Shown piece after piece: positions 1 through 60,062 of a stretch of DNA of 64,000 bases (its first letter is position 1; each line of letters begins with the position of its first letter). Below the pieces are notes generated by a model that was not told the DNA's origin, did not search any database, and worked only from the letters and a program-made list of their open reading frames with translations. The stretch lies in assembly GCF_056746865.1 (NCBI RefSeq), contig NZ_CM163382.1; one strand, 5' to 3'. A program made the position numbers and the translations under genes.

Positions 1-114
1 GCGTATACCGGTCGTGAAGTGCAGGATATTCCCGGTGTGCTGGCCGTGTTTGCTGAACGCCGTAAGGACAGTTTTGGCCCGTATGTCCGGCTGATGAGCG
101 TCACCCTGAACTGA
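1..114 (+). CDS. yeeT: YeeT-like island protein, 3' partial (5' end lies outside the window)
   Basis: Frame open from window start to TGA at 112-114; the translated tail ...AYTGREVQDIPGVLAVFAERRKDSFGPYVRLMSVTLN matches the C-terminus of the complete copy at 29067..29288; lies directly upstream of cbeA as in CP4-44-type islands. Confidence 0.6.
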   Translation, partial: AYTGREVQDIPGVLAVFAERRKDSFGPYVRLMSVTLN

Positions 115-193
115 GTCTGGAAGGGCATTCAGAAGAGCAGAATTATCGCCACCACCGGACCATTCTTAACCAATTTTCTGTGAGGATTTTATC

Positions 194-568
194 GTGCCAG
201 ACACTCTCCCCGGGACAACGCATCCCGACGATAACAACGACCGCCCCTGGTGGGGGCTACCCTGCACCGTGACGCCCTGTTTTGGGGCACGTCTGGTGCA
301 GGAGGGTAACCGGTTGCATTACCTTGCAGACCGCGCCGGTATCAGAGGCCGGTTCAGCGACGCGGATGCGTACCATCTGGACCAGGCCTTTCCGCTGCTG
401 ATGAAACAACTGGAACTCATGCTCACCAGCGGTGAACTGAATCCCCGCCATCAGCATACCGTCACGCTGTATGCAAAAGGGCTGACCTGCAAAGCCGATA
501 CCCTCAGCAGTTGTGGTTACGTTTATATGGCTGTTTATCCGACACTGGCACCCGCAACCACCTCATAA
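194..568 (+). CDS. cbeA: CbeA/YeeU-family antitoxin (cytoskeleton bundling-enhancing factor), GTG start
   Basis: 124-aa ORF; translation (MPDTLPGTTHPDDNNDRPWWGLPCTVTPCFGARLVQEGNRLHYLADRAGIRG...) recognised from memory as YeeU/CbeA; followed by cbtA. Confidence 0.85.
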   Translation: MPDTLPGTTHPDDNNDRPWWGLPCTVTPCFGARLVQEGNRLHYLADRAGIRGRFSDADAYHLDQAFPLLMKQLELMLTSGELNPRHQHTVTLYAKGLTCKADTLSSCGYVYMAVYPTLAPATTS

Positions 569-614
569 CCCCGAATATCTCACCTTTAGCACTACCAGTT
601 ACAGAGAACTTAAG

Positions 615-992
615 ATGAAAACATTACCTGACACACACGTACGGGAGGCATCGCGCTGCCCGTCTCCCGTCACCATCTGGCAGACACTGCTCACCCGACT
701 GTTGGACCAGCATTACGGCCTCACACTGAATGACACACCGTTCGCTGATGAACGTGTGATTGAGCAGCATATTGAGGCAGGCATTTCACTGTGCGATGCG
801 GTGAACTTTCTCGTTGAAAAATACGCACTGGTACGTACCGACCAGCCAGGATTCAGCGCCTGTACCCGTTCTCAGTTAATAAACAGTATTGATATCCTCC
901 GGGCCCGCCGGGCAACCGGCCTGATGGCCCGCGACAATTACAGAACGGTAAATAACATTACCCTGGGTAAACATCCGGGGGCGAAACAATGA
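615..992 (+). CDS. cbtA: CbtA/YeeV-family toxin
   Basis: ATG at 615 inside ORF 513..992; MKTLPDTHVREASRCPSPVTIWQTLLTRLLDQHYGLTLNDTPFADERVIEQHIEAGISLCDAVNFLVEKYALVRTDQPGFS... recognised as CbtA; paired with cbeA; 4-bp overlap with the next ORF. Confidence 0.85.
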   Translation: MKTLPDTHVREASRCPSPVTIWQTLLTRLLDQHYGLTLNDTPFADERVIEQHIEAGISLCDAVNFLVEKYALVRTDQPGFSACTRSQLINSIDILRARRATGLMARDNYRTVNNITLGKHPGAKQ

Positions 993-1480
993 AACTGGCC
1001 CTGACGCTGGAAGCCGACAGCATTAACGTGCAGGCACTGAACATGGGGCGCATTGTCGTTGACGTCGATGGTGTTACTCTCGCTGAACTGATTAACGTGG
1101 TCTGCGATAACGGTTACTCCCTTCGTGTTGTTGATGAATCTGACCGGACATCAGCAGAGCGCACGCCATCATCTGCGGCGGCCCTTACCGGCATACGCTG
1201 CAGTACCGCGCATATCACGGCAAAGGACAACGCCTGGCTGTACTCGCTGTCACATCAGACGAATGGCACCGGCGAATCAGAATGGATTCATTTCACAGGT
1301 AGCGGATATCTGTTACGTACCGATGCGTGGTCATACCCGGTTCTGCGGCTTAAGCGCCTGGGCCTGTCAAAAACGTTCCGTCGTCTGGTTGTCACACTTA
1401 CCCGACGTTATGGCGTCAGTCTCATTCATCTGGATGCCAGCGCTGAATGTCTGCCGGACCTGCCCACTTTCGACTGGTAA
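989..1480 (+). CDS. yeeW: YeeW-like island protein
   Basis: 163-aa ORF translationally coupled to cbtA (ATGA overlap); position and sequence consistent with yeeW of CP4-44. Confidence 0.6.
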   Translation: MKLALTLEADSINVQALNMGRIVVDVDGVTLAELINVVCDNGYSLRVVDESDRTSAERTPSSAAALTGIRCSTAHITAKDNAWLYSLSHQTNGTGESEWIHFTGSGYLLRTDAWSYPVLRLKRLGLSKTFRRLVVTLTRRYGVSLIHLDASAECLPDLPTFDW

Positions 1481-1491
1481 CCAGGAACAAC

Positions 1492-1689
1492 ATGAAATCA
1501 TTAACCACGGAAACCGCACTGGATATTCTGATTGCGTGGCTACAGGACAATATCGACTGCGAATCGGGAATTATCTTTGACAACGATGAGGATAGAACGG
1601 ATTCGGCAGCACTGTTGCCCTGTATCGAACAGGCCAGGGAGGATATCCGTATCCTGCGCCAGTTGCAGCTTCTGCAACAGAACCGGTGA
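1492..1689 (+). CDS. small conserved hypothetical protein downstream of yeeW
   Basis: ATG at 1492 inside ORF 1447..1689 (MKSLTTETALDILIAWLQDNIDCESGIIFDNDED...); the same sequence recurs in the second copy fused in frame to yeeW (30193..30816). Confidence 0.5.
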   Translation: MKSLTTETALDILIAWLQDNIDCESGIIFDNDEDRTDSAALLPCIEQAREDIRILRQLQLLQQNR

Positions 1690-1773
1690 GTCTTACTCAC
1701 CAGACTTCATTCCACTGACGCCAGCCTGAACAGGGCTGGCGTTTTCATTTATCTGCAAAAAGGAATATCGATT

Positions 1774-2640
1774 ATGTCTGAAATCACAGCCCCCCGTCCG
1801 GAAGTGGTCAACGGGCATACGGACGTTATCGGCTCAACCAGCATCCGCCACATTCTGGCTGTACGAAAGAGTGCGCTGCTGCAAATCGACACACTTATCC
1901 GGCAACTGGCAGAAATCTCGGTGCTGACGGAAAGCATCGGAGGTAAAACTGCACTGGACTGGGCCATGAAACAGGATTTTCGCTGCGGTTGCTGGCTGAT
2001 GGAAAAACCGGAAACCGCAATGAAAGCCATCACCCGCAACCTTGACCGCGAAATCTGGCGTGATCTGATGCAACGTTCAGGGATGCTGTCATTAATGGAT
2101 GCACAAGCCCGTGATACATGGTACCGGTCACTGGAGTACGATAATTTTCCGGAAATCAGCGAAGCAAATATCCTGAGCACGTTTGAACAACTGCACCAGA
2201 ACAAAGATGAAGTGTTTGAGCGAGGGGTGCTCAACGTTTTCAGAGGACTGAGCTGGAATTACAAAACCAATTCACCCTGCAAATTTGGCAGTAAAATTAT
2301 CGTCAACAATCTGGTGAGGTGGGACCGGTGGGGGTTTCATCTTATCACCGGACAACAGGCCGATCGACTTGCCGATCTGGAAAGAATGCTGCACCTGTTC
2401 AGCGGCAAACCGATCCCCGACAACCGGGAAAACATCACCATTCATCTGGATGATCACATCCAGTCTGTTCAGGGTAAAGAGGACTATGAAGATGAGATGT
2501 TCAGCATCAGATACTTTAAGAAGGGCTCCGCGCACATCACGTTCAGGAAACCAGAGCTGGTTGACAGGCTTAATGATATTATTGCCAGACACTACCCGGA
2601 AGCCCTGGCAAGCACAGTGAACAAAAGCCGCAAGGCATAA
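1774..2640 (+). CDS. conserved island protein, possibly DUF4942 family
   Basis: 288-aa ORF; a truncated paralog (N-terminal 79 aa) is present at 30916..31155. Confidence 0.55.
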   Translation: MSEITAPRPEVVNGHTDVIGSTSIRHILAVRKSALLQIDTLIRQLAEISVLTESIGGKTALDWAMKQDFRCGCWLMEKPETAMKAITRNLDREIWRDLMQRSGMLSLMDAQARDTWYRSLEYDNFPEISEANILSTFEQLHQNKDEVFERGVLNVFRGLSWNYKTNSPCKFGSKIIVNNLVRWDRWGFHLITGQQADRLADLERMLHLFSGKPIPDNRENITIHLDDHIQSVQGKEDYEDEMFSIRYFKKGSAHITFRKPELVDRLNDIIARHYPEALASTVNKSRKA

Positions 2641-2711
2641 AAGAGGTATTTTACAATTCGCGAATATTAACTATTATTAATTGATAGCAATCAATCGGCG
2701 AGAAAATAACC

Positions 2712-2975
2712 ATGCCTACCAGTGTATCCCTCAGTCCTTACTTTGAAACGTTTATCCGCGAACAAATAGAAAGTGGTCGGTACAACAATACAAGTGAAGT
2801 CATTCGTGCCGGACTTCGTGCTCTGGAAGAACGGGAACAGCAGATAAAGCTTGAATCACTCCAGAGCGCCGTGGCCGCAGGCATCAACAGCGGTGAAAGT
2901 AAAAGTGCTGAAGAGGTATTCGGGCGACTGACGCACAAATACAAAAAGATGGCAGAAGGTGAACAGCCAATATGA
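2712..2975 (+). CDS. parD: type II antitoxin, ParD/RHH family
   Basis: 87-aa ORF (…FETFIREQIESGRYNNTSEVIRAGLRALEERE…) typical of ParD antitoxins; 4-bp ATGA overlap with the following toxin ORF. Confidence 0.75.
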   Translation: MPTSVSLSPYFETFIREQIESGRYNNTSEVIRAGLRALEEREQQIKLESLQSAVAAGINSGESKSAEEVFGRLTHKYKKMAEGEQPI

Positions 2976-3298
2976 AACTGACTGTTTCACCATTAGCAGA
3001 ACACGATCTTGAAGCTATAGGTGACTGGATCGCTCAGGATAATCCTGTCCGTGCAATCAGTTTTACCGAAGAGCTTTACCAACAATGTCTGTTGATAGCC
3101 GAATCGCCAGTACTCTACAGAGAAAGACCCGAGTTAGGGGCTGGGATCAGAGGTTGTTCGTATGGTCGTTACCTTCTGCTGTTCAGGGTACTGGATACTG
3201 AAGTTCGTATCGAACGTATCGTTCATGGTTCCCGGGATATCAACAGGGTACTTGCAGAGCCAGACGACAAACCATCAGATCATTTCTGGCAGCCATAA
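2972..3298 (+). CDS. parE: type II toxin, ParE/RelE family
   Basis: 108-aa ORF coupled to the preceding RHH antitoxin; size and C-terminal region fit ParE/RelE. Confidence 0.7.
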   Translation: MKLTVSPLAEHDLEAIGDWIAQDNPVRAISFTEELYQQCLLIAESPVLYRERPELGAGIRGCSYGRYLLLFRVLDTEVRIERIVHGSRDINRVLAEPDDKPSDHFWQP

Positions 3299-3545
3299 AC
3301 AAAATCTGTGCGTTAACGCTCCCTAACACAGGTAGCCAGGTATTTTATAAATCTCTGTATTTTGTTGTCACTTCGATTCCGCGATTCAGCATATCGAACC
3401 AGACAAAATGATTACAACAAACCACAAGAAAGAGGGATTATAGCGTCAAAAGAATTCGAATTGCACATGGGGGCCTCATTGGTGGCCTCAAAAAGAACAA
3501 GGATAAAACAGTCGATACAAAACAATTGGTTATATAACCAGTTTC

Positions 3546-3564
3546 ATTCCGAGTCCGGGCACCA
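3546..3564 (+). repeat. 19-bp copy of the tRNA-Phe 3' end (ATTCCGAGTCCGGGCACCA): island att direct repeat, not a complete tRNA
   Basis: Exact match to the 3' terminal 19 nt of E. coli tRNA-Phe including CCA; upstream sequence does not match the rest of the tRNA; integrase gene begins about 200 bp downstream. Confidence 0.7.
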
Positions 3565-3576
3565 AATTCATATAAA

Positions 3577-3603
3577 CGGACCTCCACGGAGGTCCGTTTT
3601 TCG
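3577..3603 (+). terminator. rho-independent terminator-like hairpin after the tRNA-Phe repeat
   Basis: CGGACCTCC-ACGG-AGGTCCG stem-loop followed by a T-run. Confidence 0.5.
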
Positions 3604-3761
3604 TTTCAGGACGCCACGATTTAAGTGTCCTGCCGCCAAATCAATTCTACCGAACTCAACCAGACTCCCCCCACATCAACCCCATTGTGTGGGTATAATT
3701 GCGGGTATACCCCAGTTCGACAGAATTTGTACCCTCTTTAACGCATTCAGAAGGCTGAACT

Positions 3762-5027
3762 ATGGCACTGACTGACGCAAAAATCCGGGCTGCAAAGCAC
3801 ACTGACAAGGCTTATAAACTCACTGACGGGGCTGGCATGTTCCTGCTGGTACATCCTAATGGTTCCCGTTACTGGCGTCTCCGTTATCGCATTCTGGGTA
3901 AGGAGAAAACTCTGGCACTTGGTGTATACCCGGAGGTTTCTCTCTCCGAAGCTCGTACAAAACGGGATGAGGCCCGAAAACTGATTTCGGAGGGGATTGA
4001 CCCTTGCGAACAGAAAAGAGCTAAAAAAGTAGTCCCTGATTTACAACTCTCTTTTGAACATATCGCACGACGCTGGCATGCCAGTAATAAACAATGGGCA
4101 CAATCACACAGCGATAAGGTACTCAAAAGCCTCGAAACACACGTTTTCCCCTTTATCGGCAACCGGAACATCACAACACTCAATACCCCGGACCTGCTTA
4201 TCCCTGTTCGTGCTGCAGAAGCTAAACAAATTTATGAAATCGCCAGTCGTCTGCAGCAAAGAATATCTGCTGTAATGCGTTATGCCGTACAGTCTGGCAT
4301 CATCAGATATAATCCTGCTCTGGATATGGCTGGCGCATTGACCTCTGTAAAACGACAGCATCGCCCCGCTCTTGATCTTTCACGTCTGCCTGAACTTCTG
4401 TCGCGTATTAACAGTTATAAAGGTCAGCCTGTCACCCGGCTTGCTGTTATGCTGAATTTACTGGTTTTTATTCGCTCCAGTGAACTCAGATATGCCCGCT
4501 GGGCTGAAATTGATATTGACAATTCAATGTGGACTATTCCAGCCGAACGCAAACCTCTGCCAGGGGTAAAATTCTCACACCGGGGCTCCAAGATGCGAAC
4601 ACCACATCTTGTGCCACTCAGCAAACAGGCTGTAGCCATACTGACAGAACTTCAGACATGGGCTGGTGAAAATGGTCTGATCTTTACGGGAGCACATGAC
4701 CCGCGTAAACCAATCAGTGAAAATACCGTAAATAAGGCCCTCAGAGTGATGGGGTATGACACAACCAAGGAAGTCTGTGGCCATGGATTCCGGGCGATGG
4801 CGTGCAGTGCATTGATTGAATCCGGCTTATGGTCAAGAGATGCGGTTGAACGTCAGATGAGTCATCAGGAGCGCAACGGAGTACGTGCCGCGTATATTCA
4901 TAAAGCAGAACATCTGGAAGAACGTCGGCTTATGCTGCAATGGTGGGCAGATTTTCTGGATGCAAACAGGGAGGAGTGTATCAGTCCGTTTGAATATGCA
5001 AAAGTTAACAATCCACTGAAAAGGTGA
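3762..5027 (+). CDS. int: tyrosine recombinase / P4-type phage integrase
   Basis: 421-aa ORF; N-terminus MALTDAKIRAAKHTDKAYKLTDGAGMFLLVHPNGSRYWRLRYR... is the characteristic P4-integrase N-terminal domain; C-terminal catalytic region present (…HGFRAMA…); lies next to the tRNA-Phe att repeat. Confidence 0.9.
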   Translation: MALTDAKIRAAKHTDKAYKLTDGAGMFLLVHPNGSRYWRLRYRILGKEKTLALGVYPEVSLSEARTKRDEARKLISEGIDPCEQKRAKKVVPDLQLSFEHIARRWHASNKQWAQSHSDKVLKSLETHVFPFIGNRNITTLNTPDLLIPVRAAEAKQIYEIASRLQQRISAVMRYAVQSGIIRYNPALDMAGALTSVKRQHRPALDLSRLPELLSRINSYKGQPVTRLAVMLNLLVFIRSSELRYARWAEIDIDNSMWTIPAERKPLPGVKFSHRGSKMRTPHLVPLSKQAVAILTELQTWAGENGLIFTGAHDPRKPISENTVNKALRVMGYDTTKEVCGHGFRAMACSALIESGLWSRDAVERQMSHQERNGVRAAYIHKAEHLEERRLMLQWWADFLDANREECISPFEYAKVNNPLKR

Positions 5028-8966: not shown

Positions 8967-11033
<2,067 letters not shown>

Positions 11034-12249: not shown

Positions 12250-12325
12250 TGCAAAATGGTACCTGAATCAATCACAGTCAGGTATTCCGCCAATCCGTGA
12301 TCGAATCGAGCGGAATACTCAGCCC
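12250..12325. repeat. miniature remnant matching both termini of the IS21-family element at 18514-21142
   Basis: GCAAAATGGTACCTGAATCAATC matches the IS left end (GCAAAATGGCATCTGAATCGATC) and CCAATCCGTGATCGAATCGAGCGGAATAC matches the IS right end (CCAATCCGTGATCGAATAGAGCGGAATAC). Confidence 0.45.
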
Positions 12326-16542: not shown

Positions 16543-17415
16543 ATGAATCCGTCTGATGCCATTGAGGCAATTGAAAAACCGCTCTCCTCCCTGCCTTACT
16601 CACTTTCCCGTCACATCCTGGAACATCTGCGTAAACTCACCAGTCACGAACCCGTGATTGGCATTATGGGTAAAAGCGGGGCCGGTAAATCCTCACTCTG
16701 TAATACACTGTTTCAGGGGGAGGTCACCCCGGTCAGTGATGTTCACGCCGGCACCCGGGAAGTGCAGCGCTTCCGTCTGAGTGGCCATGGTCACAGCATG
16801 GTTATCACTGACCTGCCCGGGGTGGGCGAGAGTCGTGACAGGGATGCAGAGTATGAAGCCCTGTACCGTGACATTCTGCCTGAACTGGACCTGGTACTGT
16901 GGCTGATTAAAGCCGATGACCGGGCCCTGTCTGTGGATGAGTATTTCTGGCGACACATCCTGCACCGGGGACATCAGCAGGTGCTGTTTGTGGTGACGCA
17001 GGCCGACAAAACGGAGCCCTGCCATGAATGGGATATGGCCGGCATTCAGCCTTCTCCCGCACAGGCACAGAACATTCGCGAAAAAACGGAGGCGGTATTC
17101 CGTCTGTTCCGGCCCGTACATCCGGTTGTTGCCGTATCGGCCCGCACCGGCTGGGAACTGGATACGCTGGTCAGTGCGCTCATGACAGCGCTTCCCGACC
17201 ATGCCGCCAGTCCCCTGATGACCCGCCTGCAGGACGAGCTGCGCACGGAATCTGTCCGGGGTCAGGCCCGTGAACAGTTTACCGGTGCGGTGGACCGGAT
17301 ATTTGACACGGCGGAGAGCGTCTGTGTTGCCTCTGTTGCCCGTACGGTTCTGCGTGCCGTCCGTGACACGGTGGTCTCTGTTGCCCGCGCTGTATGGAAC
17401 TGGATTTTCTTCTGA
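16543..17415 (+). CDS. yeeP: YeeP/YfjP/YkfA-family GTPase
   Basis: ATG at 16543 in ORF 16504..17415; P-loop GIMGKSGAGKSS and downstream DLPGVGES motif; located just upstream of flu as yeeP is in CP4-44. Confidence 0.75.
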   Translation: MNPSDAIEAIEKPLSSLPYSLSRHILEHLRKLTSHEPVIGIMGKSGAGKSSLCNTLFQGEVTPVSDVHAGTREVQRFRLSGHGHSMVITDLPGVGESRDRDAEYEALYRDILPELDLVLWLIKADDRALSVDEYFWRHILHRGHQQVLFVVTQADKTEPCHEWDMAGIQPSPAQAQNIREKTEAVFRLFRPVHPVVAVSARTGWELDTLVSALMTALPDHAASPLMTRLQDELRTESVRGQAREQFTGAVDRIFDTAESVCVASVARTVLRAVRDTVVSVARAVWNWIFF

Positions 17416-17524
17416 ACAGTCTGCCAGGGAAATGCCTGATAACATTACGTTAACCAACTGAAAACATGACACAACCCCCTCATACTCCTCCTGTTTCTCT
17501 TGCGTGACTGCCTTGCTGTTAATA

Positions 17525-17575
17525 GAATATAACGATCGATAAAACAGATATCGATCGTTACTATCGATCGTTTAT
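17525..17575 (+). promoter_or_regulatory. flu (agn43) phase-variation switch: three GATC Dam sites within the OxyR-binding region
   Basis: CGATCGATAAAACAGATATCGATCGTTACTATCGATCG with GATC at 17534, 17553 and 17566, about 220 bp upstream of the flu start. Confidence 0.7.
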
Positions 17576-17721
17576 AGTGGTTAATGGTCTGCGAAAAGGC
17601 AGCTGAATCTCTTCATCATGCAGAACGGAATTGCACACAACGGACTGATACTTCTCTGGCGGATGAGAGAGGGGAAGCATTTATGTCCGGGAAAAACCAC
17701 TTTATCTGACCATGCTGTTTT

Positions 17722-17761
17722 GTACCTGCCGGTATCCACTTTTGTGGGTACCGGCTTTTTT
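17722..17761 (+). other. stem-loop plus T-run in the flu 5' leader (terminator-like; may close an IsrC-like small RNA or act as a leader structure)
   Basis: GTACCTGCCGGTATCCAC-TTTT-GTGGGTACCGGC followed by TTTTTT, ending about 25 nt before the flu ATG. Confidence 0.35.
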
Positions 17762-17786
17762 ATTCACCCTCTGTAAGGAAAAGCTG

Positions 17787-18515
17787 ATGAAACGACATCT
17801 GAACACCAGCTACAGGCTGGTATGGAATCACATTACGGGTACCCTGGTGGTGGCCTCCGAACTGGCCCGCTCACGGGGAAAACGCGCCGGTGTGGCGATT
17901 GCGCTGTCTCTTGCTGCTGTCACATCAGTCCCGGCACTGGCTGCTGACACGGTTGTACAGGCGGGAGAAACCGTGAGCGGCGGAACACTGACAAATCATG
18001 ACAACCAGATTGTATCCGGAACAGCTGATGGCGTGACTGTCAGTACCGGGCTTGAGCTGGGGCCGGACAGTGACGAAAACACCGGCGGGCAATGGATAAA
18101 AGCGGGTGGCACAGGCAGAAACACCACTGTCACCGCAAATGGTCGTCAGATTGTGCAGGCAGGAGGAACTGCCAGTGATACGGTTATTCGTGATGGCGGA
18201 GGGCAGAGCCTTAACGGACTGGCGGTGAACACCACGCTGGATAACAGAGGTGAGCAGTGGGTACACGGGGGAGGGAAAGCTGCCGGTACAATTATTAACC
18301 AGGATGGTTACCAGACCATAAAACATGGCGGACTGGCAACCGGAACCATCGTCAACACCGGTGCAGAAGGTGGTCCGGAGTCTGAAAATGTGTCCAGCGG
18401 TCAGATGGTCGGAGGGACGGCTGAATCCACCACCATCAACAAAAATGGCCGGCAGGTTATCTGGTCTTCGGGGATGGCACGGGACACCCTCATTTACGCC
18501 GGTGGTGACCAGACT
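17787..18515 (+). pseudogene. flu: antigen 43 (Ag43) autotransporter, 5' portion interrupted by an IS
   Basis: MKRHLNTSYRLVWNHITGTLVVASELARSRGKRAGVAIALSLAAVTSVPALAADTVVQ… matches the Ag43 signal peptide and passenger domain; identity ends at …YAGGDQT where IS sequence begins. Confidence 0.85.
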
Positions 18516-18716
18516 GCAAAATGGCATCTGAATCGATCGCAGTTTGGCATTCGAATCGATCATGATTTGGCATCCATCTCCGATCACAGTTTGGCATCAC
18601 AATCGATCACGATTTGGCATGCTTCCGATCATTGATTGGCATCCTGCCAGTCACTCCGGGAATTAACTCTTTTCACCACAGTCTCCATTGCCGTGTTTAA
18701 ACCAGTGGAGACGTCA

Positions 18717-20282
18717 ATGTCCAGAAAGAGAAAATCCAGGAGCACTATGGAAACCTGTTTTAAGATTCTTCAGCTCAAGTTCGACAAGAAGCTGACTAAC
18801 CGTTGTATCGGACTGACGTTACACATCAGCGCCTCAACCGTTTTTGAGGTTCTTGCCCGCTTCAAAGCCTCTTCTCTGTCATGGCCATTACCTGCTGATA
18901 TATCCCATGACACGCTGGAGAAACTCATTTTTCCGCCCAAAGACACCTTTGCATCAGAGCTTGTAATGCCTGACATGTTGTACCTCGATACGGAAATGAG
19001 AAAACCAGGTGTGACGCGGCAACTGTTGTGGATGGAATACAAGGCACAGGCGGGTAACAAAGCGATGGGATACTCGCACTTCTGCCGTTGCTACCGGGAG
19101 TGGAAAAAAACGCGACGTCTCTCCATGCGCCAGGAGCATCGTGCCGGCGAAAAGCTTTTTATCGACTTCTGTGGTCCTACGGTTCCTGTTATTAATCCGG
19201 ACACCGGTGAGATACGCCGCGTGGCAATCTTCGTGGCCGTAATGGGGGCGTCCAACTATACCTACGTTGAAGCGTGCGAAGGTCAGGACATGATGTCATG
19301 GTTAAATGCCCACAGCCGTTGCCTGACCTTCCTGGGCGGCGTACCGAAGCTGCTCATCCCCGATAACCTCAGAAGCGCAGTGAAAAAGGCCGATCGATAT
19401 GAGCCTGTCATCAACGACAGTTATCAGGCACTGGCTGAGCACTATGGCACGGTTATCATCCCGGCCCGACCACGCAAACCTAAAGATAAACCAAAAGCAG
19501 AAAACGGCGTCCTCATCGTCGAACGATGGCTTCTTGCCCGCATCCGTAATGAAACCTTCCACACGCTCAGGGCGCTGAATGCGCGCCTTAGGGAGTTACT
19601 GACAGACATGAATAACCGGCCAATGAAGGGGTACGGCAATCAAACCCGTGCAGAACGCTTCCGCATACTGGATGCGCCAGCACTCTCTCCGCTGCCTCTG
19701 GCACCTTATGAATACACGGAATACAAAGCTGTGAAGGTTGGCCCTGACTACCACGTTGAATATGCCCGTCACTGGTACTCCGTTCCACACGAACTGGTCG
19801 GTCAGCGTCTGTCACTGAAGGCGGGGCAGTCGGTGGTACAGCTCTGGCACAAGGGGCAGTGTGTGGCGCAACATCCGCGCAGCACACATGAATATAAACA
19901 CACAACCAATCCGCTTCACATGCCAGAGCGCCACCGGCAGCACGGGACATGGACACCGGAACGCCTGATCGAGCAGGGAAAACGTACGGGCCCGTCCACA
20001 GGCCGGGTGGTTGAATCCATGCTGAAGGCAAAACCCCATCCGGAACTGGCTTATCGTGCAGTTCTGGGGCTGCTGGCACTTCAGAAAAAATACGGCCCGG
20101 AACGGCTGGAAAAGGCCTGTTACGTTGCCCTGCACTATAACGCCCCTGACAGACGCTTTATCGACAATCTGCTGCGTCACCATCGGGAGAACCTGGAGCT
20201 TCCATTATCCCGCCAGGGCGAACAACATCCGGCATATGCTTCAGAGCATGAAAACCTGCGTGGTCCGGGCTACTACCACTGA
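18717..20282 (+). CDS. istA: IS21-family transposase IstA
   Basis: Large ORF 18636..20282 with integrase-core features (…LFIDFCGPTVPV…); the start codon is uncertain (18636, 18717 or 18747). Confidence 0.75.
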   Translation: MSRKRKSRSTMETCFKILQLKFDKKLTNRCIGLTLHISASTVFEVLARFKASSLSWPLPADISHDTLEKLIFPPKDTFASELVMPDMLYLDTEMRKPGVTRQLLWMEYKAQAGNKAMGYSHFCRCYREWKKTRRLSMRQEHRAGEKLFIDFCGPTVPVINPDTGEIRRVAIFVAVMGASNYTYVEACEGQDMMSWLNAHSRCLTFLGGVPKLLIPDNLRSAVKKADRYEPVINDSYQALAEHYGTVIIPARPRKPKDKPKAENGVLIVERWLLARIRNETFHTLRALNARLRELLTDMNNRPMKGYGNQTRAERFRILDAPALSPLPLAPYEYTEYKAVKVGPDYHVEYARHWYSVPHELVGQRLSLKAGQSVVQLWHKGQCVAQHPRSTHEYKHTTNPLHMPERHRQHGTWTPERLIEQGKRTGPSTGRVVESMLKAKPHPELAYRAVLGLLALQKKYGPERLEKACYVALHYNAPDRRFIDNLLRHHRENLELPLSRQGEQHPAYASEHENLRGPGYYH

Positions 20283-20298
20283 CAGAAGGAACAACAGT

Positions 20299-21054
20299 AT
20301 GAGTGATAACCTGTTAAACAAACTGACCCAACTGAAACTCCCGGCGATGGCCGGGAGCCTGATACGGCAGCGGGAAACGCCTCAGACCTACGACGAACTG
20401 TCGTTCGAGGAAAGGCTGACGCTGCTGGTTGATGACGAGCTTCTGAGCAGGGAAAACAGCCGTGTGGCACGGTTGAGAAAAAATGCCGGCCTGAAATACC
20501 AGGCAACACCGGAAGGGCTGCGCTATCCGGCCTCAAGAGGTCTGCGGGCTGAACAGATGAGAGAACTGCTGAACGGCCACTACATAACCCACAGGAAAAA
20601 CCTGCTGATAACCGGTCCGACAGGATGTGGCAAGAGCTGGATAGCCAATGCGCTGGGCGAACAGGCATGTCGACAGAAACACAGCGTCCGGTACTGTAGA
20701 ACCGGGCGATTACTGGAACAACTGGCTCAGGGACGTGTTGATGGCAGCTGGCTGAAATATCTGAAACAGTTGCAAAAAATACAGGTTCTAATCCTGGACG
20801 ATCTGGGGCTGGAACAGTTAAGTAACGCCCAGTGTAATGACCTTCTGGAGCTCATAGAGGATCGTTACGGACAAAGCAGCACGATAGTGGTAAGCCAGTT
20901 CCCGGTAGATAAATGGCATGGTCTGATGGAGAACCCAACAACAGCAGATGCCATCCTGGACAGACTGGTACATAACTCACACCGGGTGGTCCTTCAGGGA
21001 GAGTCACTGAGGAAAAATCCCCCGGTAGTGGAAAGCAGCGAAAAAACGCGTTAA
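20299..21054 (+). CDS. istB: IS21-family helper ATPase IstB
   Basis: 251 aa from the ATG at 20299; Walker A GPTGCGKSW and Walker B VLILDDLG. Confidence 0.85.
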   Translation: MSDNLLNKLTQLKLPAMAGSLIRQRETPQTYDELSFEERLTLLVDDELLSRENSRVARLRKNAGLKYQATPEGLRYPASRGLRAEQMRELLNGHYITHRKNLLITGPTGCGKSWIANALGEQACRQKHSVRYCRTGRLLEQLAQGRVDGSWLKYLKQLQKIQVLILDDLGLEQLSNAQCNDLLELIEDRYGQSSTIVVSQFPVDKWHGLMENPTTADAILDRLVHNSHRVVLQGESLRKNPPVVESSEKTR

Positions 21055-21144
21055 AAAGCGGTAGAAAAAGTTAAGTTCCCGGTTGATCGAATGGATGCGA
21101 ATCGCTGATCGGACTTCGATGCCAATCCGTGATCGAATAGAGCG

Positions 21145-23554
21145 GAATACGCACCAGACGGTACACGGAGAGGCACATAACACCCGACTGGAGGGGGGTA
21201 ACCAGTATGTACACAACGGTGGCACGGCAACAGAGACGCTGATAAACCGTGATGGCTGGCAGATGATTAAGGAAGGAGGAACTGCCGCGCATACCACCAT
21301 CAACCAGAAAGGAAAGCTGCAGGTGAATGCCGGCGGTAAAGCGTCTGATGTCACCCAGAACACGGGCGGTGCACTGGTTACCAGTACAGCTGCAACCGTC
21401 ACCGGCACAAACCGCCTGGGAGCATTCTCCGTTGTGGCGGGTAAGGCTGATAATGTCGTACTGGAAAATGGCGGACGTCTGGATGTGCTGAGCGGACACA
21501 CAGCCACTAATACCCGTGTGGATGATGGCGGAACGCTGGATGTCCGCAACGGTGGTGCCGCCACCACCGTATCCATGGGGAATGGCGGTGTACTGCTGGC
21601 CGATTCCGGTGCCGCTGTCAGTGGTACCCGGAGCGACGGAACGGCATTCCATATCGGAGGCGGTCAGGCGGATGCCCTGATGCTGGAAAAAGGCAGTTCA
21701 TTCACGCTGAACGCCGGTGATACGGCCACGGATACCACGGTAAATGGCGGATTGTTCACTGCCAGAGGGGGCTCGCTGGCGGGCACCACCACGCTGAATA
21801 ACGGTGCCACGCTTATCCTTTCCGGGAAAACGGTAAATAACGATACCCTGACCATCCGTGAAGGTGATGCACTCCTGCAGGGAGGCGCTCTTACCGGTAA
21901 CGGCAGGGTGGAAAAATCAGGAAGTGGCACACTCACTGTCAGCAACACCACACTCACCCAGAAAACCGTCAACCTGAATGAAGGCACGCTGACGCTGAAC
22001 AACAGTACCGTCACCACGGATGTCATCGCTCAGCGCGGCACGGCCCTGAAGCTGACCGGCAGCACAGTGCTGAACGGTGCCATTGACCCCACGAATGTCA
22101 TCCTGACATCCGGTGCCACCTGGAATATCCCCGATAACGCCACGGTTCAGTCGGTGGTGGATGACCTCAGCCATGCCGGACAGATTCATTTCACCTCCGC
22201 CCGCACAGGGAAGTTCGTTCCGACAACTCTGCAGGTGAAAAACCTGAACGGGCAGAATGGCACCATCAGCCTGCGTGTACGCCCGGATATGGCGCAGAAC
22301 AATGCTGACAGACTGGTCATTGACGGTGGCAGGGCAACCGGAAAAACCATCCTGAATCTGGTGAACGCCGGCAACAGTGGTACGGGGCTGGCGACCACCG
22401 GTAAGGGTATTCAGGTGGTTGAGGCCATTAACGGTGCCACCACGGAGGAAGGGGCTTTTGTCCAGGGGAATATGTTGCAGGCCGGGGCCTTTAACTACAC
22501 CCTCAACCGGGACAGTGATGAGAGCTGGTATCTGCGCAGTGAAGAACGTTATCGTGCTGAAGTCCCCCTGTACGCCTCCATGCTGACACAGGCAATGGAC
22601 TATGACCGGATTCTGGCAGGCTCCCGCAGCCATCAGACCGGTGTAAACGGTGAAAATAACAGCGTCCGTCTCAGCATTCAGGGCGGCCATCTCGGTCACG
22701 ATAACAACGGCGGTATTGCCCGTGGGGCCACGCCGGAAAGCAGCGGCAGCTATGGCTTCGTCCGTCTGGAGAGTGACCTGCTCAGAACAGAGGTCGCCGG
22801 TATGTCACTGACGACAGGAGTGTATGGTGCTGCAGGCCATTCTTCCGTTGATGTTAAGGATGATGACGGCTCCCGCGCCGGCACGGTCCGGGATGATGCC
22901 GGCAGCCTGGGCGGATATATGAACCTGACACACACCTCCTCCGGCCTGTGGGCTGACATTGTGGCACAGGGAACCCGCCACAGTATGAAAGCGTCATCGG
23001 GCAATAACGACTTCCGCGCACGGGGCTGGGGCTGGCTGGGCTCACTGGAAACCGGTCTGCCCTTCAGTATCACTGACAACCTGATGCTGGAGCCACGGCT
23101 GCAGTACACCTGGCAGGGGCTTTCGCTGGATGACGGTAAGGACAACGCCGGTTATGTGAAGTTCGGGCATGGCAGTGCACAACATGTGCGTGCCGGTTTC
23201 CGTCTGGGCAGCCACAACGATATGACCTTTGGTGAAGGCACCTCATCCCGTGCCCCCCTGCGTGACAGTGCAAAACACAGTGTGCGTGAACTGCCGGTGA
23301 ACTGGTGGGTACAGCCTTCCGTTATCCGCACCTTCAGCTCCCGGGGTGATATGCGTGTGGGGACCTCCACCGCAGGCAGCGGGATGACGTTCTCACCCTC
23401 ACAGAATGGCACTTCACTGGATCTGCAGGCAGGACTGGAAGCCCGTGTCCGGGAAAATATCACCCTGGGCGTTCAGGCCGGTTATGCCCACAGCGTCAGC
23501 GGCAGCAGCGCTGAAGGCTATAACGGTCAGGCCACGCTGAATGTGACCTTCTGA
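21145..23554 (+). pseudogene. flu: antigen 43 (Ag43) autotransporter, 3' portion (rest of passenger domain plus beta-barrel)
   Basis: Reading frame resumes with …HQTVHGEAHNTRLEGGNQYVHNGGTATE… and continues to the canonical autotransporter C-terminus …GYNGQATLNVTF. Confidence 0.85.
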
Positions 23555-23668
23555 CAGAACCATCGCCTCTTTGTGGTCCCGGTCATCATGATCGGGACCC
23601 GGACCGGCGCAACGGATATTCAACGCCACATTCGCTGGCATTAACAATAACATGATATTCATCACGGA

Positions 23669-25168
23669 GTGACTATGTTACAGATAGTCGGCGCGCTGAT
23701 CCTGCTGATAGCAGGATTTGCCATTCTTCGCCTTTTGTTCAGAGCATTAATCAGCACAGCTTCTGCGCTGGCAGGGCTTATATTGCTGTGTCTGTTCGGC
23801 CCGGCTTTACTGGCTGGCTATATCACTGAACGCATAACCCGGTTATTCCATATTCGCTGGCTGGCAGGCGTATTTCTGACAATTGCCGGAATGATCATCA
23901 GCTTCATGTGGGGACTTGATGGTAAACATATCACACTGGAGGCTCATACCTTTGACTCTGTAAAATTTATTCTGACCACCGCTCTCGCCGCTGGTCTGCT
24001 GGCTCTTCCCGTGCAGATAAGAACAATTCAGCAGAACGGGCTCACACCAGAAGATATCAGCAAGGAAATTAACGGGTATTACTGCTGTTTTTATACTGCT
24101 TTTTTCCTTATGGCGTGTTCTGCATACGCACCATTGATCGCATTGCCGTTCGATATTTCACCCTCACTGATGTGGTGGGGCGGGTTGTTGTACTGGCTGG
24201 CTGCATTAGTGACGCTGCTATGGGCGGCCAGCCAGATCCAGGCGCTGAAAAAACTGACCAGTGCCATCCGCCAGACACTGGAAGAACAACCGGTGCTCAA
24301 CAGTAAATCGTGGCTGAGCAGTTTGCAAAACGATTACAGCCTTCCTGAAACGTTGACGGAGCGCATCTGGCTCACGCTCATTTCACAACGGATTTCCCGG
24401 GGAGAACTGAGGGAATTTGAACTGGCAGACGGAAACTGGCTACTGGACAATGCCTGGTATGAAAGAAACATGGCGGGTTTCAACGAAAAGCTGAGAGAGA
24501 GCCTGTCATTTACCCCTGATGAACTGAAAACCCTCTTCCGGAACCGCCTGAATTTATCACCGGAAGCGAATGACGATTTTCTCGATCGTTGCCTGGACGG
24601 CGGTGACTGGTACCCCTTTTCAGAAGGCCGCCGTTTTGTATCATTCCACCACGTGGATGAGCTTCGTATCTGTGCCTCCTGCGGGCTGACAGAAGTACAT
24701 CATGCCCCGGAAAATCATAAGCCGGATCCGGAATGGTACTGCTCCTCTCTTTGTCGCGAAACAGAAACACTGTGTCAGGACATTTATGAACGTTCTTACA
24801 CCGGTTTTATTTCCGATGCAACGGCGAATGGTCTGATTCTCATGAAACTGCCGGAAACCTGGAGTACAAATGAGAAAATGTTTGCTTCCGGAGGGCAGGG
24901 ACATGGGTTTGCCGCTGAACGGGGAAACCATATTGTCGACAGAGTCCGTCTGAAAAACGCACGGATCCTCGGTGATAATAATGCCAAAAATGGAGCAGAC
25001 AGACTGGTCAGCGGAACAGAAATCCAGACGAAATATTGTTCAACTGCAGCCCGTAGCGTCGGTGCGGCATTCGACGGACAGAACGGACAGTATCGTTACA
25101 TGGGAAATCATGGTCCCATGCAACTGGAAGTCCCCGTGATCAGTATGCCGGCGCTGTGGAAACCATGA
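23669..25168 (+). CDS. yeeR: YeeR-like inner membrane protein
   Basis: 499 aa with several N-terminal hydrophobic helices; position downstream of flu as in CP4-44. Confidence 0.55.
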   Translation: MTMLQIVGALILLIAGFAILRLLFRALISTASALAGLILLCLFGPALLAGYITERITRLFHIRWLAGVFLTIAGMIISFMWGLDGKHITLEAHTFDSVKFILTTALAAGLLALPVQIRTIQQNGLTPEDISKEINGYYCCFYTAFFLMACSAYAPLIALPFDISPSLMWWGGLLYWLAALVTLLWAASQIQALKKLTSAIRQTLEEQPVLNSKSWLSSLQNDYSLPETLTERIWLTLISQRISRGELREFELADGNWLLDNAWYERNMAGFNEKLRESLSFTPDELKTLFRNRLNLSPEANDDFLDRCLDGGDWYPFSEGRRFVSFHHVDELRICASCGLTEVHHAPENHKPDPEWYCSSLCRETETLCQDIYERSYTGFISDATANGLILMKLPETWSTNEKMFASGGQGHGFAAERGNHIVDRVRLKNARILGDNNAKNGADRLVSGTEIQTKYCSTAARSVGAAFDGQNGQYRYMGNHGPMQLEVPVISMPALWKP

Positions 25169-26190
25169 AGAATAAGATCCGCGAAGGTAAAGTACCCGGT
25201 GTAACCGATCCCGAAGAAGCGTCCCGGCTGATTCGTCGGGGACATCTGACTTATACCCAGGCCCGTAATATCACCCGGTTCGGGACCATCGAATCGGTCA
25301 CTTATGATATTGCCGAGGGGTCGGTTGTCAGTCTGGCGGCCGGAGGGATCAGTTTTGCCCTGACGGCATCGGTCTTCTGGCTCAGCACCGGCGATCGCGA
25401 TGCTGCCCTGCAGACAGCTGCTGTCCAGGCAGGAAAAACCTTCACCCGCACACTGGCTGTCTACGTCACAACCCAGCAACTTCACCGGCTCAGTGTTGTT
25501 CAGGGTATGCTGAAGCATATTGATTTTTCGACGGCCAGCCCGACTGTCCGGCAGGCGCTTCAGAAGGGGACCGGTGCAGGAAATATCAGTGCCCTGAACA
25601 AAGTGATGAAGGGGTCGCTGGTGACATCTCTGGCACTGGTAGCTGTCACAACCGGCCCTGACATGATCAAAATGTTGCGGGGACGGATCTCCGGTGCGCA
25701 GTTCATCAGGAATCTTGCCGTGGCATCTTCCTGTGTGGCAGGTGGTGCTGTCGGGTCAGTGGCGGGCGGGATATTGTTCAGTCCACTGGGACCATTTGGT
25801 GCACTGACAGGGCGTGTGGTTGGCGGTGTTCTGGGGGGAATGATTGCCTCCGCTGTATCAGGAAAAATTGCCGGAGCGCTGGTTGAAGAAGATCGCGTCA
25901 AAATTCTGGCAATGATTCAGGAGCAGGTGACATGGCTTGCCGGCAGTTTCCTGCTGACCGGACATGAGATTGAAAATCTGAACGCGAATCTGGCCCGTGT
26001 TATCGATCAGAATGCTCTGGAGATCATTTTCGCCGCCGGTATACAACAACGGGCCGCGACCAACATGTTAATCAAACCACTGGTGGTCAGTATCATCAGG
26101 CAACGCCCCGTCATGGAATATGATGCATCCCATCTCGGCAATATGGTTAACCGACTGGAAGAAACATTACCCCCGGAGTTACCGGCATAA
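25156..26190 (+). CDS. hypothetical membrane protein (Gly/Ala-rich hydrophobic segments); may be a frameshifted continuation of the upstream gene
   Basis: 344-aa ORF beginning 13 nt before the upstream stop, in a different frame. Confidence 0.45.
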   Translation: METMKNKIREGKVPGVTDPEEASRLIRRGHLTYTQARNITRFGTIESVTYDIAEGSVVSLAAGGISFALTASVFWLSTGDRDAALQTAAVQAGKTFTRTLAVYVTTQQLHRLSVVQGMLKHIDFSTASPTVRQALQKGTGAGNISALNKVMKGSLVTSLALVAVTTGPDMIKMLRGRISGAQFIRNLAVASSCVAGGAVGSVAGGILFSPLGPFGALTGRVVGGVLGGMIASAVSGKIAGALVEEDRVKILAMIQEQVTWLAGSFLLTGHEIENLNANLARVIDQNALEIIFAAGIQQRAATNMLIKPLVVSIIRQRPVMEYDASHLGNMVNRLEETLPPELPA

Positions 26191-59565: not shown

Positions 59566-59577
59566 AATGCTACCGCC
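59566..59577 (-). promoter_or_regulatory. ops-like element (GGCGGTAGCATT on the minus strand) in the kps leader; candidate RfaH recruitment site
   Basis: Reverse complement of 59566-59577 reads GGCGGTAGCATT, matching the ops core GGCGGTAG; lies about 930 bp upstream of the first ORF of the kpsD-M-T-E block. Confidence 0.4.
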
Positions 59578-60062
59578 CCTGGCTTTACAGCTACCAATAC
59601 ACTGGAGGTATACTTATCTGCAACTGGATGAACTAGATATACTTGAGCAAACATTTCATAAGCTCGACGAACAGTTTTCGTAGAAATTATTTTCCTTATT
59701 TAAAATTCACTTATTGATTATCTCTAGGAATTTTACTAATTTCCAAGTCACATAAAATACAGATCACACAAGAATTATCCTATATGCTTTAACCTATCAA
59801 TTATTACTCAATGATTCATTACAACTATTAATAATCATAATGCGTCAAAACACTTAAGCAACTTTACAGTCTGAGAAAGGTGTCGATTCACAAGGACTGC
59901 ATAGTGAAAAACGAATTCCTACAGTATTATCGAACATTCCGTGGTGGTCTGGAGGGAGATAACCCTTGCTACATCGGAACTCAGCCCGGTGAGCGGGTTT
60001 GACAGTTCCGCACTCACCTTTGGGCTAAGGTTATCAGGTGGGGTTTAAGGGGATGGCAATAC

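Follow-up and report, generated by a model that had tools for sequence, protein, structure and literature searches.

The flu (agn43) gene, which encodes antigen 43 (Ag43), a self-aggregation adhesin of E. coli, has in the stretch of DNA analysed here, a window of 64,000 nucleotides, very probably been split by an ISSso4-like insertion sequence of the IS21 family that entered at codon 243, leaving an Ag43/Cah-family pseudogene at the locus. A knockout of this sort is a known kind of event. We propose that the IS copy transposed into agn43 within an E. coli genomic island, duplicating 6–7 bp of target and dividing the gene, with the IstA transposase and IstB helper ATPase acting by what would be the usual mechanism of the family, through 3'-CA ends and a staggered target cut.

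The split gene and its junctions

From the open reading frame (ORF) list and a reading of the sequence, flu extends on the + strand from a start codon at 17787 to the end of its stop codon at 23554. The frame breaks past codon 243 (…YAGGDQT), at 18514. The 5' fragment (17787..18514, + strand) matches the intact allele and encodes codons 1–243, containing the ESPR signal peptide (Pfam ESPR at residues 6–50) and the first part of the passenger with AIDA repeats. Beyond it the frame continues for 39 codons of IS sequence and terminates at 18633–18635, and the truncated reading frame in the ORF list and its translation (17787..18635, + strand) consists of 243 Ag43 residues followed by 39 from the IS. 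The flu frame resumes from 21158, and the 3' fragment (21160..23554, + strand), 100% identical to the intact allele, carries the remaining passenger, the autochaperone, the β-barrel and the stop, with the Pfam domains AIDA, AC_1 and Autotransporter. This 798-residue 3' part by itself scores 1369.2 bits against the NCBIfam equivalog model NF033177 auto_Ag43 (cut-off 1200), and the curated family model places the gene among the Ag43/Cah autotransporter adhesins, as an earlier sequence-only reading of this DNA had proposed. Every element of the type Va architecture (extended signal peptide, repeat passenger, autochaperone and C-terminal β-barrel) is present across the two fragments. The domains become contiguous only once the IS is removed in silico, and the locus lacks the uninterrupted reading frame of the family.

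Compared base by base, the window and the intact agn43 allele of strain 2016C-3878 match exactly over 17400–18514 and 21153–23700, and the two flanks, of 1,115 and 2,548 nt, thus show no substitution in a total of 3,663 nt (100% identity). The matched segments share 7 nt of that allele, ACCAGAC, which identifies the duplicated target; extension of the exact matches places its copies, (A)CCAGAC, at 18508..18514 and 21153..21159. The first A of the right copy (base 21153) could equally belong to the IS as its terminal base, and the duplication is therefore 6–7 bp long, CCAGAC plus an ambiguous A, when the ends are set at TG…CA as in four other copies of the element. Removing the IS and one repeat in silico restores a frame of 1,040 amino acids, since 17787–18514 joined to 21160–23554 makes 3,123 nt, or 1,040 codons with a single terminal stop. 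A 7-nt identity alone would be expected by chance at about 6e-5 per site pair (1/4^7), and in combination with exact restoration of the frame it lies far beyond chance. The sequence-only reading had described an istA–istB element of roughly 2.6 kb that interrupts flu after …YAGGDQT, with ACCAGA(C) at both junctions, and had recommended alignment with an intact allele; that alignment confirms both the insertion point and the duplication. The left edge that it gave, after 18514, stands, and the right boundary moves from 21142 to 21153 (or 21152).

An insertion sequence is a classic cause of misassembly, and this one is found at full length in about 4% of E. coli genomes, with as many as 34 places in a single genome that match it at least in part, so a repeated IS misplaced inside flu by the assembler deserves consideration. 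We give this next to no credence, as both junctions lie within one contiguous sequence and a misjoin would not create a clean 6–7-bp duplication around canonical TG…CA ends.

The ORF list also contains a chimeric entry (21083..23554, + strand) that opens at a TTG within the right end of the IS and continues in frame into the 3' part of flu, giving 823 amino acids without a signal peptide. Such a frame raises the idea that the 3' part is still expressed, from the IS end, as a functional N-terminally truncated Ag43, and in strain CB7453 PGAP calls an analogous 5'-truncated remainder an intact ‘agn43’ CDS. An autotransporter without a signal peptide cannot reach the periplasm, and the chimeric frame has neither an ESPR nor a Sec signal peptide, the ESPR lying only in the 5' fragment; a consensus promoter scan, moreover, found no promoter-like site on the + strand at the right end of the IS. 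Continued expression of a working protein is extremely improbable on these grounds, and the chimeric frame is an entry in an ORF list, not evidence of a gene.

By domain logic, then, the disrupted flu locus would yield no functional Ag43: the 5' product of 243 + 39 residues would retain the signal peptide and lose the autochaperone and β-barrel, while the 3' part would retain the barrel without a signal peptide or native promoter. No sequence evidence contradicting a knockout was seen. The Ag43 copy of the island would be unable to contribute to autoaggregation or biofilm in this strain whatever the state of its switch, although a second, intact agn43 paralogue outside the 64-kb window could mask the phenotype: genomes with any match to a 6.3-kb query of flu plus the IS had a median of two matching places. 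The locus would be overcalled by PCR typing for presence or absence of ‘agn43’, and likewise where its 3' ORF is annotated automatically.

The IS21-family element

The IS occupies 18515..21153 on the + strand (2,639 bp, 5'-TG…CA-3'), with boundaries set by comparison with the intact allele and with four other copies that have different flanks. The name ISSso4 follows the PGAP label (‘ISSso4 family’). The ends, TGCAAAATGG… and …GGAATACGCA, are the same in all five copies, and the TG…CA termini are thus shared with four copies in differing contexts. IS21-family elements carry multiple repeats within their terminal inverted repeats (PMC10122671), and the same arrangement is found here. The left terminal region (18515..18643, + strand) holds about five direct subterminal repeats (…GATCnnnnTTTGGCAT…, spaced 22–24 nt; repeat families D1 and D2), and the right terminal region (21084..21153, + strand) holds copies in inverted form, with inverted repeats I1, I2, I6–I8 and I11 and the direct family D3. 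The terminal inverted repeats with their 5'-TG…CA-3' ends, the direct families D1–D3 and the inverted pairs I1, I2 and I6–I8 are those of an IS21 element, as is the short direct target duplication (A)CCAGAC. The subterminal repeats are presumably binding sites for IstA. They are also rich in GATC: eight of these sites fall in about 160 nt of IS ends, against four in the 2.4-kb interior, and every subterminal repeat has one.

The element has the two genes that define the family, istA, for a transposase with HTH and DDE domains, followed by istB, for an AAA+ helper. The istA gene (18747..20282, + strand) encodes 511 amino acids, or 521 from an alternative in-frame start at 18717, an offset equal to that of the PGAP istA in MS 200-1; each of the two ATGs has its own Shine-Dalgarno sequence. 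IstA scores 285.8 bits against NCBIfam transpos_IS21 (cut-off 160) and contains the Pfam domains rve and Mu-transpos_C_2. The istB gene (20299..21054, + strand) encodes an AAA+ helper ATPase of 251 amino acids that scores 257.8 bits against NCBIfam IS21_help_AAA (cut-off 200) and matches Pfam IstB_IS21 with E=1e-60. These scores, together with the exact flank matches, uphold the earlier assignment of the knockout to an IS21-family insertion.

The EC13 copy, in which PGAP calls istA (511 aa) and istB (251 aa) intact, agrees with this IS at all 2,639 bp (100% identity), as do plasmid copies. Full-length copies are present in 225 genomes. Identical copies in several replicons and this wide occurrence lend indirect support to an element that looks active. 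Where target duplications of other copies are recognisable they are AAAAG in MS 200-1 (5 bp) and GTTTCAG in EC13 (7 bp), and these two and CCAGAC, the three that can be recognised, share no consensus that would indicate a target-sequence preference. Elsewhere in the window, a 72-bp mini-element (12250–12321) is identical in L009; L007 diverges across the whole segment, so it offers no clean empty site.

Promoter, Dam/OxyR switch and possible read-through

The region upstream of flu was compared with K-12 without gaps, anchored on the first GATC; a MAFFT alignment of the same region had mis-registered the GATC sites, and the anchored comparison gave the correct register. The putative flu promoter (TTGCGT, a 17-nt spacer and TAGAAT) lies at 17500..17528 on the + strand. 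A consensus promoter scan left it below threshold because its −35 matches only three of six positions, and the promoter is consequently assigned, from a reading of the sequence, through conservation with K-12 only: K-12 conserves the −10 block AATAGAATA and the interval between it and GATC-I. The switch core follows (17534..17569, + strand), with GATC-I at 17534, GATC-II at 17553 and GATC-III at 17566. Their spacing of 19 and 13 nt is identical to that of K-12 (GATCs at 1318, 1337 and 1350 of the K-12 sequence compared), and the ATCGATCG blocks flanking the sites are conserved.

In the model of the agn43 switch, one OxyR-binding region immediately following the promoter contains three GATC sites (PMC2909390), and methylation prevents OxyR from binding, which gives heritable ON and OFF states; the window carries what appears to be the same arrangement of sites. 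Promoter, GATC sites and leader are all 100% identical to the intact allele of 2016C-3878, which supports a switch that is intact as far as its sequence can indicate; the three upstream GATC sites that the sequence-only reading ascribed to Dam/OxyR control were correctly recognised at this level. The 5' leader (17532..17768, + strand) matches Rfam RF00124 ‘IS102 RNA’ over the full model (1–206; cmscan 71.1 bits, gathering score 46), and its K-12 counterpart is annotated isrC, beginning at the first GATC. Within it a terminator scan found a terminator-like hairpin and T-run (17728..17764, + strand; 12 pairs, of which 8 are G-C, then TTTTTTATT), in a block that hardly varies in the alignment with K-12.

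The switch would still toggle transcription, now only of the leader and the truncated frame and possibly of read-through into the IS. The IS is co-oriented with flu, and the terminator scan found no terminator-like site on the + strand between the flu start codon and istA, for which reason the switch may drive read-through of istAB. Transposition may in addition be sensitive to Dam methylation, because each subterminal repeat carries a GATC; transposition of IS10 and IS50 is Dam-methylation-sensitive. Taken together, the switch may impose phase-variable read-through on istAB, with IS mobility bistable in a clonal population, and transposition itself may respond to Dam methylation, but we regard this as a conjecture with rather poor prospects. 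The literature searched contained no paper linking Dam-methylation sensitivity to the IS21 family. Apart from these minor leads, the GATC-rich IS ends and read-through from a phase-variable promoter, the locus opens no new question, and it stands as one more dated example of how accessory genes for adhesins in the islands of E. coli are eroded by insertion sequences.

Age of the insertion and comparison with known systems

The junction appears in none of the collections searched: an 80-mer spanning it was covered to at least 80% in 0 of 5,426 complete E. coli genomes, and a 29-mer had no exact match in GTDB species representatives or JGI metagenome contigs. Because the flanks are undiverged, an identical IS copy exists elsewhere and the junction is absent from every collection searched, the event is probably evolutionarily very recent and private to the strain, ‘recent’ being understood here as absence from finite collections. 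This agrees with the earlier suggestion of a recent insertional knockout. IS-disrupted agn43 does persist in several sequenced strains, with ISEc31 in CB7453/OZ392432 and IS421 in three of the G series, as might be expected if the locus were instead an old pseudogene fixed in its lineage. That history is very unlikely for this copy, given unsubstituted flanks, a perfect duplication, an IS 100% identical to other copies and a junction missing from all 5,426 genomes and two large contig collections. The recent insertion might in theory be reversed by precise excision, as the earlier reading had envisaged. Slippage between repeats of 6–7 bp that lie 2.6 kb apart is very rare, and reversion, though possible in principle, would probably be so too.

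The same insertion was sought among matches that hold both the IS and agn43, and these proved to be different events. In MS 200-1 an ISSso4-like IS separates the Shine-Dalgarno sequence of agn43 from its ATG, in EC13 it lies at about codon 130, and in the SW070917/G1-2 group within a yeeR-like gene downstream of agn43. Other elements have struck the gene as well: ISEc31 in CB7453/OZ392432 has entered an allele identical to that of the window, and IS421 interrupts agn43 in G1/2. Since the query contained both IS and flu, the match list is enriched for co-occurrences. Enrichment of ISSso4-like elements near agn43 was accordingly rejected, as the query selected such cases and the islands are IS-tolerant.

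These independent insertions at agn43 (CB7453, MS 200-1, EC13 and G1/2), along with a frameshifted flu reported in ST1193 (PMC11488385), could also be taken to mean that loss was adaptive, selected against Ag43 to avoid aggregation or antibody recognition, for example, and not a neutral accident. We consider selection unlikely. The match list carries the bias just described, flu is a large neutral target (3.1 kb, non-essential, in an IS-tolerant island), phase variation already provides an OFF state that weakens selection for permanent loss, and most listed carriers of the 100% identical allele keep it intact (H15–H30).

The split gene compares closely with the flu of K-12, a Dam/OxyR phase-variable autotransporter gene in the cryptic prophage CP4-44. 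The protein reconstructed from the window has the same domain order (ESPR, AIDA repeats, AC_1 and β-barrel) and shares 86.5% identity with K-12 Flu from end to end (1,040 against 1,039 aa). Both loci have the 19/13 GATC spacing just downstream of a TAGAAT −10 and the leader hairpin, and their neighbours correspond, with a yeeP-like GTPase upstream and yeeR and cbeA/cbtA downstream. The window gene differs in being interrupted by an IS and in representing a non-K-12 variant, and its leader departs from the K-12 sequence except in the switch core and the final ~90 nt.

The element itself is 99.6–100% identical to the annotated ISSso4-like copies of E. coli and Shigella chromosomes and plasmids (MS 200-1, EC13, SW070917 and plasmid copies), from which it differs in an insertion site unique to the window. 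As described for the IS21 family (PMC10122671), it carries two ORFs between TG…CA ends, has several subterminal repeats and is flanked by a short target duplication. It has about five repeat units on the left and three on the right, where prototypical members such as IS5376 have ‘usually at least two’, and duplications among its copies range from 5 to 7 bp, in contrast to the fixed 5 bp of IS5376 (PMC10122671). The other IS-disrupted agn43 alleles (CB7453, G1/2, EC13 and MS 200-1) differ from the window in insertion site and some of them in IS family, and none has its junction; the outcome is nevertheless the same throughout, with the gene split or uncoupled from its promoter and the flanking island kept.

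The interrupted reading frame and the limits of the insertion

The flu gene (agn43, encoding antigen 43, Ag43; 17787-23554, plus strand) begins at 17787 with MKRHLNTSYRLVWNH… in the ORF listing and its translation, and its 5' ORF encodes an autotransporter passenger domain up to …LIYAGGDQT, after which 39 unrelated codons lead to a stop at 18633-18635. Beyond this break lie plus-strand ORFs of 511 aa (istA, 18747-20282) and 251 aa (istB, 20299-21054), followed by the remainder of the autotransporter, ending at 23554. Pfam and NCBIfam models place an ESPR extended signal peptide and AIDA repeats in the 5' fragment, and AIDA repeats, an AC_1 autochaperone and an Autotransporter β-domain in the 3' fragment, which scores 1369 bits against the NCBIfam Ag43/Cah equivalog model (cut-off 1200). 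In the same libraries the istA product, with rve and Mu-transpos_C_2 domains, scores 285.8 bits as an IS21-family transposase (cut-off 160), and the istB product scores 257.8 bits as the helper ATPase IstB (cut-off 200), with IstB_IS21 at E=1e-60.

A megablast search of 5,426 complete E. coli genomes with 17400-23700 as query reveals uninterrupted agn43 matching both flanks at 100% in many strains (rows H15-H30 of the match list). With the intact agn43 of strain 2016C-3878 as reference, exact matches extended from either side cover 17400-18514 and 21153-23700, and share seven nucleotides, ACCAGAC, within the intact allele. Joining 17787-18514 to 21160-23554 in silico restores 3,123 nt, or 1,040 codons with one terminal stop, the length annotated by PGAP for the intact gene; the protein so rebuilt shares 86.5% identity with K-12 Flu along its full length. 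Four further copies of the element, in differing contexts, all start TGCAAAATGG… and all finish …GGAATACGCA, and its limits are therefore 18515-21153 (2,639 bp, TG…CA), making the target duplication CCAGAC plus one A assignable to target or IS terminus. This alignment confirms the insertion point and duplication of the sequence-only reading, in which the frame broke after …YAGGDQT and resumed beyond an IS21-family istA-istB element with ACCAGA(C) at both junctions; the sole correction is the right boundary, which lies at 21153 instead of 21142.

Probable consequences for antigen 43, and its switch

The 5' product retains the signal peptide and lacks the autochaperone and β-barrel, which should prevent its surface display. 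The 3' part, including a chimeric plus-strand ORF of 823 aa (21083-23554) with a TTG start inside the IS, has no signal peptide, and a promoter scan detected no promoter-like site ahead of it. Because neither part is complete in these respects, the split locus should yield no functional Ag43, which supports the proposed insertional knockout. A second agn43 copy elsewhere in the genome, beyond the window, could mask the phenotype; among genomes matched at all by the 6.3-kb flu-plus-IS query, the median number of matching places is two.

Precise excision had been proposed as a potential route to reversion. Precise excision of IS elements and transposons proceeds by host replication slippage, is rare, and is helped by long perfect inverted repeats; from flu it would need loss of the IS together with exactly one copy of the duplication. 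Since a distance of 2.6 kb separates direct repeats of just 6-7 bp, and the end regions are complementary at only 70-75% over ~50 nt, such reversion is possible in principle and improbable.

Over the 387 nt preceding the start codon, the sequence does not differ from that of 2016C-3878. It retains the three GATC sites (17534, 17553 and 17566) at the 19- and 13-nt spacing of K-12 flu, and in-register comparison reveals that the surrounding AATAGAATA…ACGATC…ATCGATCGTT…TATCGATCG blocks are kept in K-12. A match to the full length of Rfam model RF00124, the counterpart of the K-12 flu leader (annotated isrC), spans 17532-17768, and K-12 shares the strong terminator-like hairpin at 17728-17764. Repression of agn43 occurs through OxyR at one site spanning three GATCs, with binding abolished by their Dam methylation (PMC2909390). 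Judged by sequence, all of these elements are present upstream of the split gene; the three GATC sites had been described originally.

Age, distribution and genomic setting

The flanks carry 0 substitutions over 3,663 nt relative to the intact allele, the duplication copies are perfect, and the IS matches the copy in strain EC13, where istA and istB are annotated intact, at every one of its 2,639 bp (100%), and is identical to copies on plasmids of chicken isolates. None of the 5,426 complete E. coli genomes covers at least 80% of an 80-mer across the junction, and a 29-mer across it is absent from GTDB species representatives and JGI metagenome contigs. Taken together, these findings speak for an insertion that is very recent and, within the reach of public data, private to the strain, in agreement with the recent origin first suggested. 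The full-length IS occurs in 225 of the 5,426 genomes, and pieces of it (ends or internal segments) in 1,775.

Insertions of this ISSso4-like IS around agn43 in other strains are independent: in MS 200-1 (L002, 1885-4523) it separates the Shine-Dalgarno sequence from the ATG, in EC13 (L005, 1780-4418) it interrupts the gene at ~codon 130, and in the ten records of the SW070917 and G1/2 group (L004/L006) it sits in a yeeR-like gene, with no recognisable duplication. G1/2 also carries IS421 in a 97%-identical agn43 allele, and ST1193 is reported to have a frameshifted flu (PMC11488385). In CB7453 (L008, 688-5071), a 100% identical allele is cut by ISEc31 at ~codon 100, and PGAP nevertheless calls the part left after 5' truncation an intact 'agn43' CDS, an annotation artefact to which the ORF at 21083-23554 could also be subject. 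IS disruption of agn43 is nothing unusual. As the query contained both flu and the IS, we do not claim a hotspot. The insertion is an ordinary, well-understood event, this instance being new to the collections searched; the original observation is confirmed and its interpretation supported.

The gene sits in a CP4-44-like island that opens with an intact integrase ORF (3762-5027, 421 aa), split by ISEc23 in M21170; the window starts in the tail of an adjacent CP4-like island encoding cbtA toxin, DUF4942 and ParDE (region 1-5027). No tRNA gene lies within the 64-kb window. Rfam matches an isrC Hfq-binding sRNA at 9472-9594 (plus strand, 150 bits). A yeeP-like GTPase gene directly precedes flu, and a frameshifted yeeR-family gene and the cbeA/cbtA toxin-antitoxin genes follow it, then a minus-strand polysaccharide/capsule-like cluster at roughly 31-62 kb, preceded by a JUMPstart element (59566-59604, minus strand, Rfam, 54 bits). 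The yeeR-family gene (23669-26190) is split into ORFs 23669-25168 and 25156-26190; annotations of 2016C-3878, A_5 and M21170 also give it a frameshift, and this is therefore an older lesion that these strains share.

The element and the IS21 family

The subterminal repeats of the IS (18535-18630 and 21085-21134), where IstA presumably binds, each contain a GATC, with five GATCs at the left end and three at the right against four in the 2.4-kb interior. This suggests that recognition of the ends may be sensitive to Dam, and no paper in the literature searched connects the IS21 family to Dam. At 12250-12321, a 72-bp mini-element, identical in M21170, consists of only the left and right ends of the same ISSso4-like IS (TGCAAAATGGtAcCTGAATCaATCaCAGT … GCCAATCCGTGATCGAATcGAGCGGAATACtCA) without istAB, and is a MITE-like deletion derivative.

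At the left end of the IS in flu, a ~23-nt unit (…GATCnnnnTTTGGCAT…) is directly repeated about five times, and inverted copies of it lie at the right end, matching the terminal inverted repeats with multiple repeats bound by IstA in the IS21 family (PMC10122671). Target duplications of 5 bp in MS 200-1 (AAAAG) and 7 bp in EC13 (GTTTCAG) imply that duplication length varies somewhat in the ISSso4-like element, in contrast to the fixed 5 bp of the IS21-family member IS5376 (PMC10122671). Within istA, in-frame ATGs at 18717 and 18747 lie ten codons apart, a separate Shine-Dalgarno sequence preceding each (GGAG and AGGAG); this arrangement may parallel the transposase/cointegrase isoforms of IS21 (PMC10122671).
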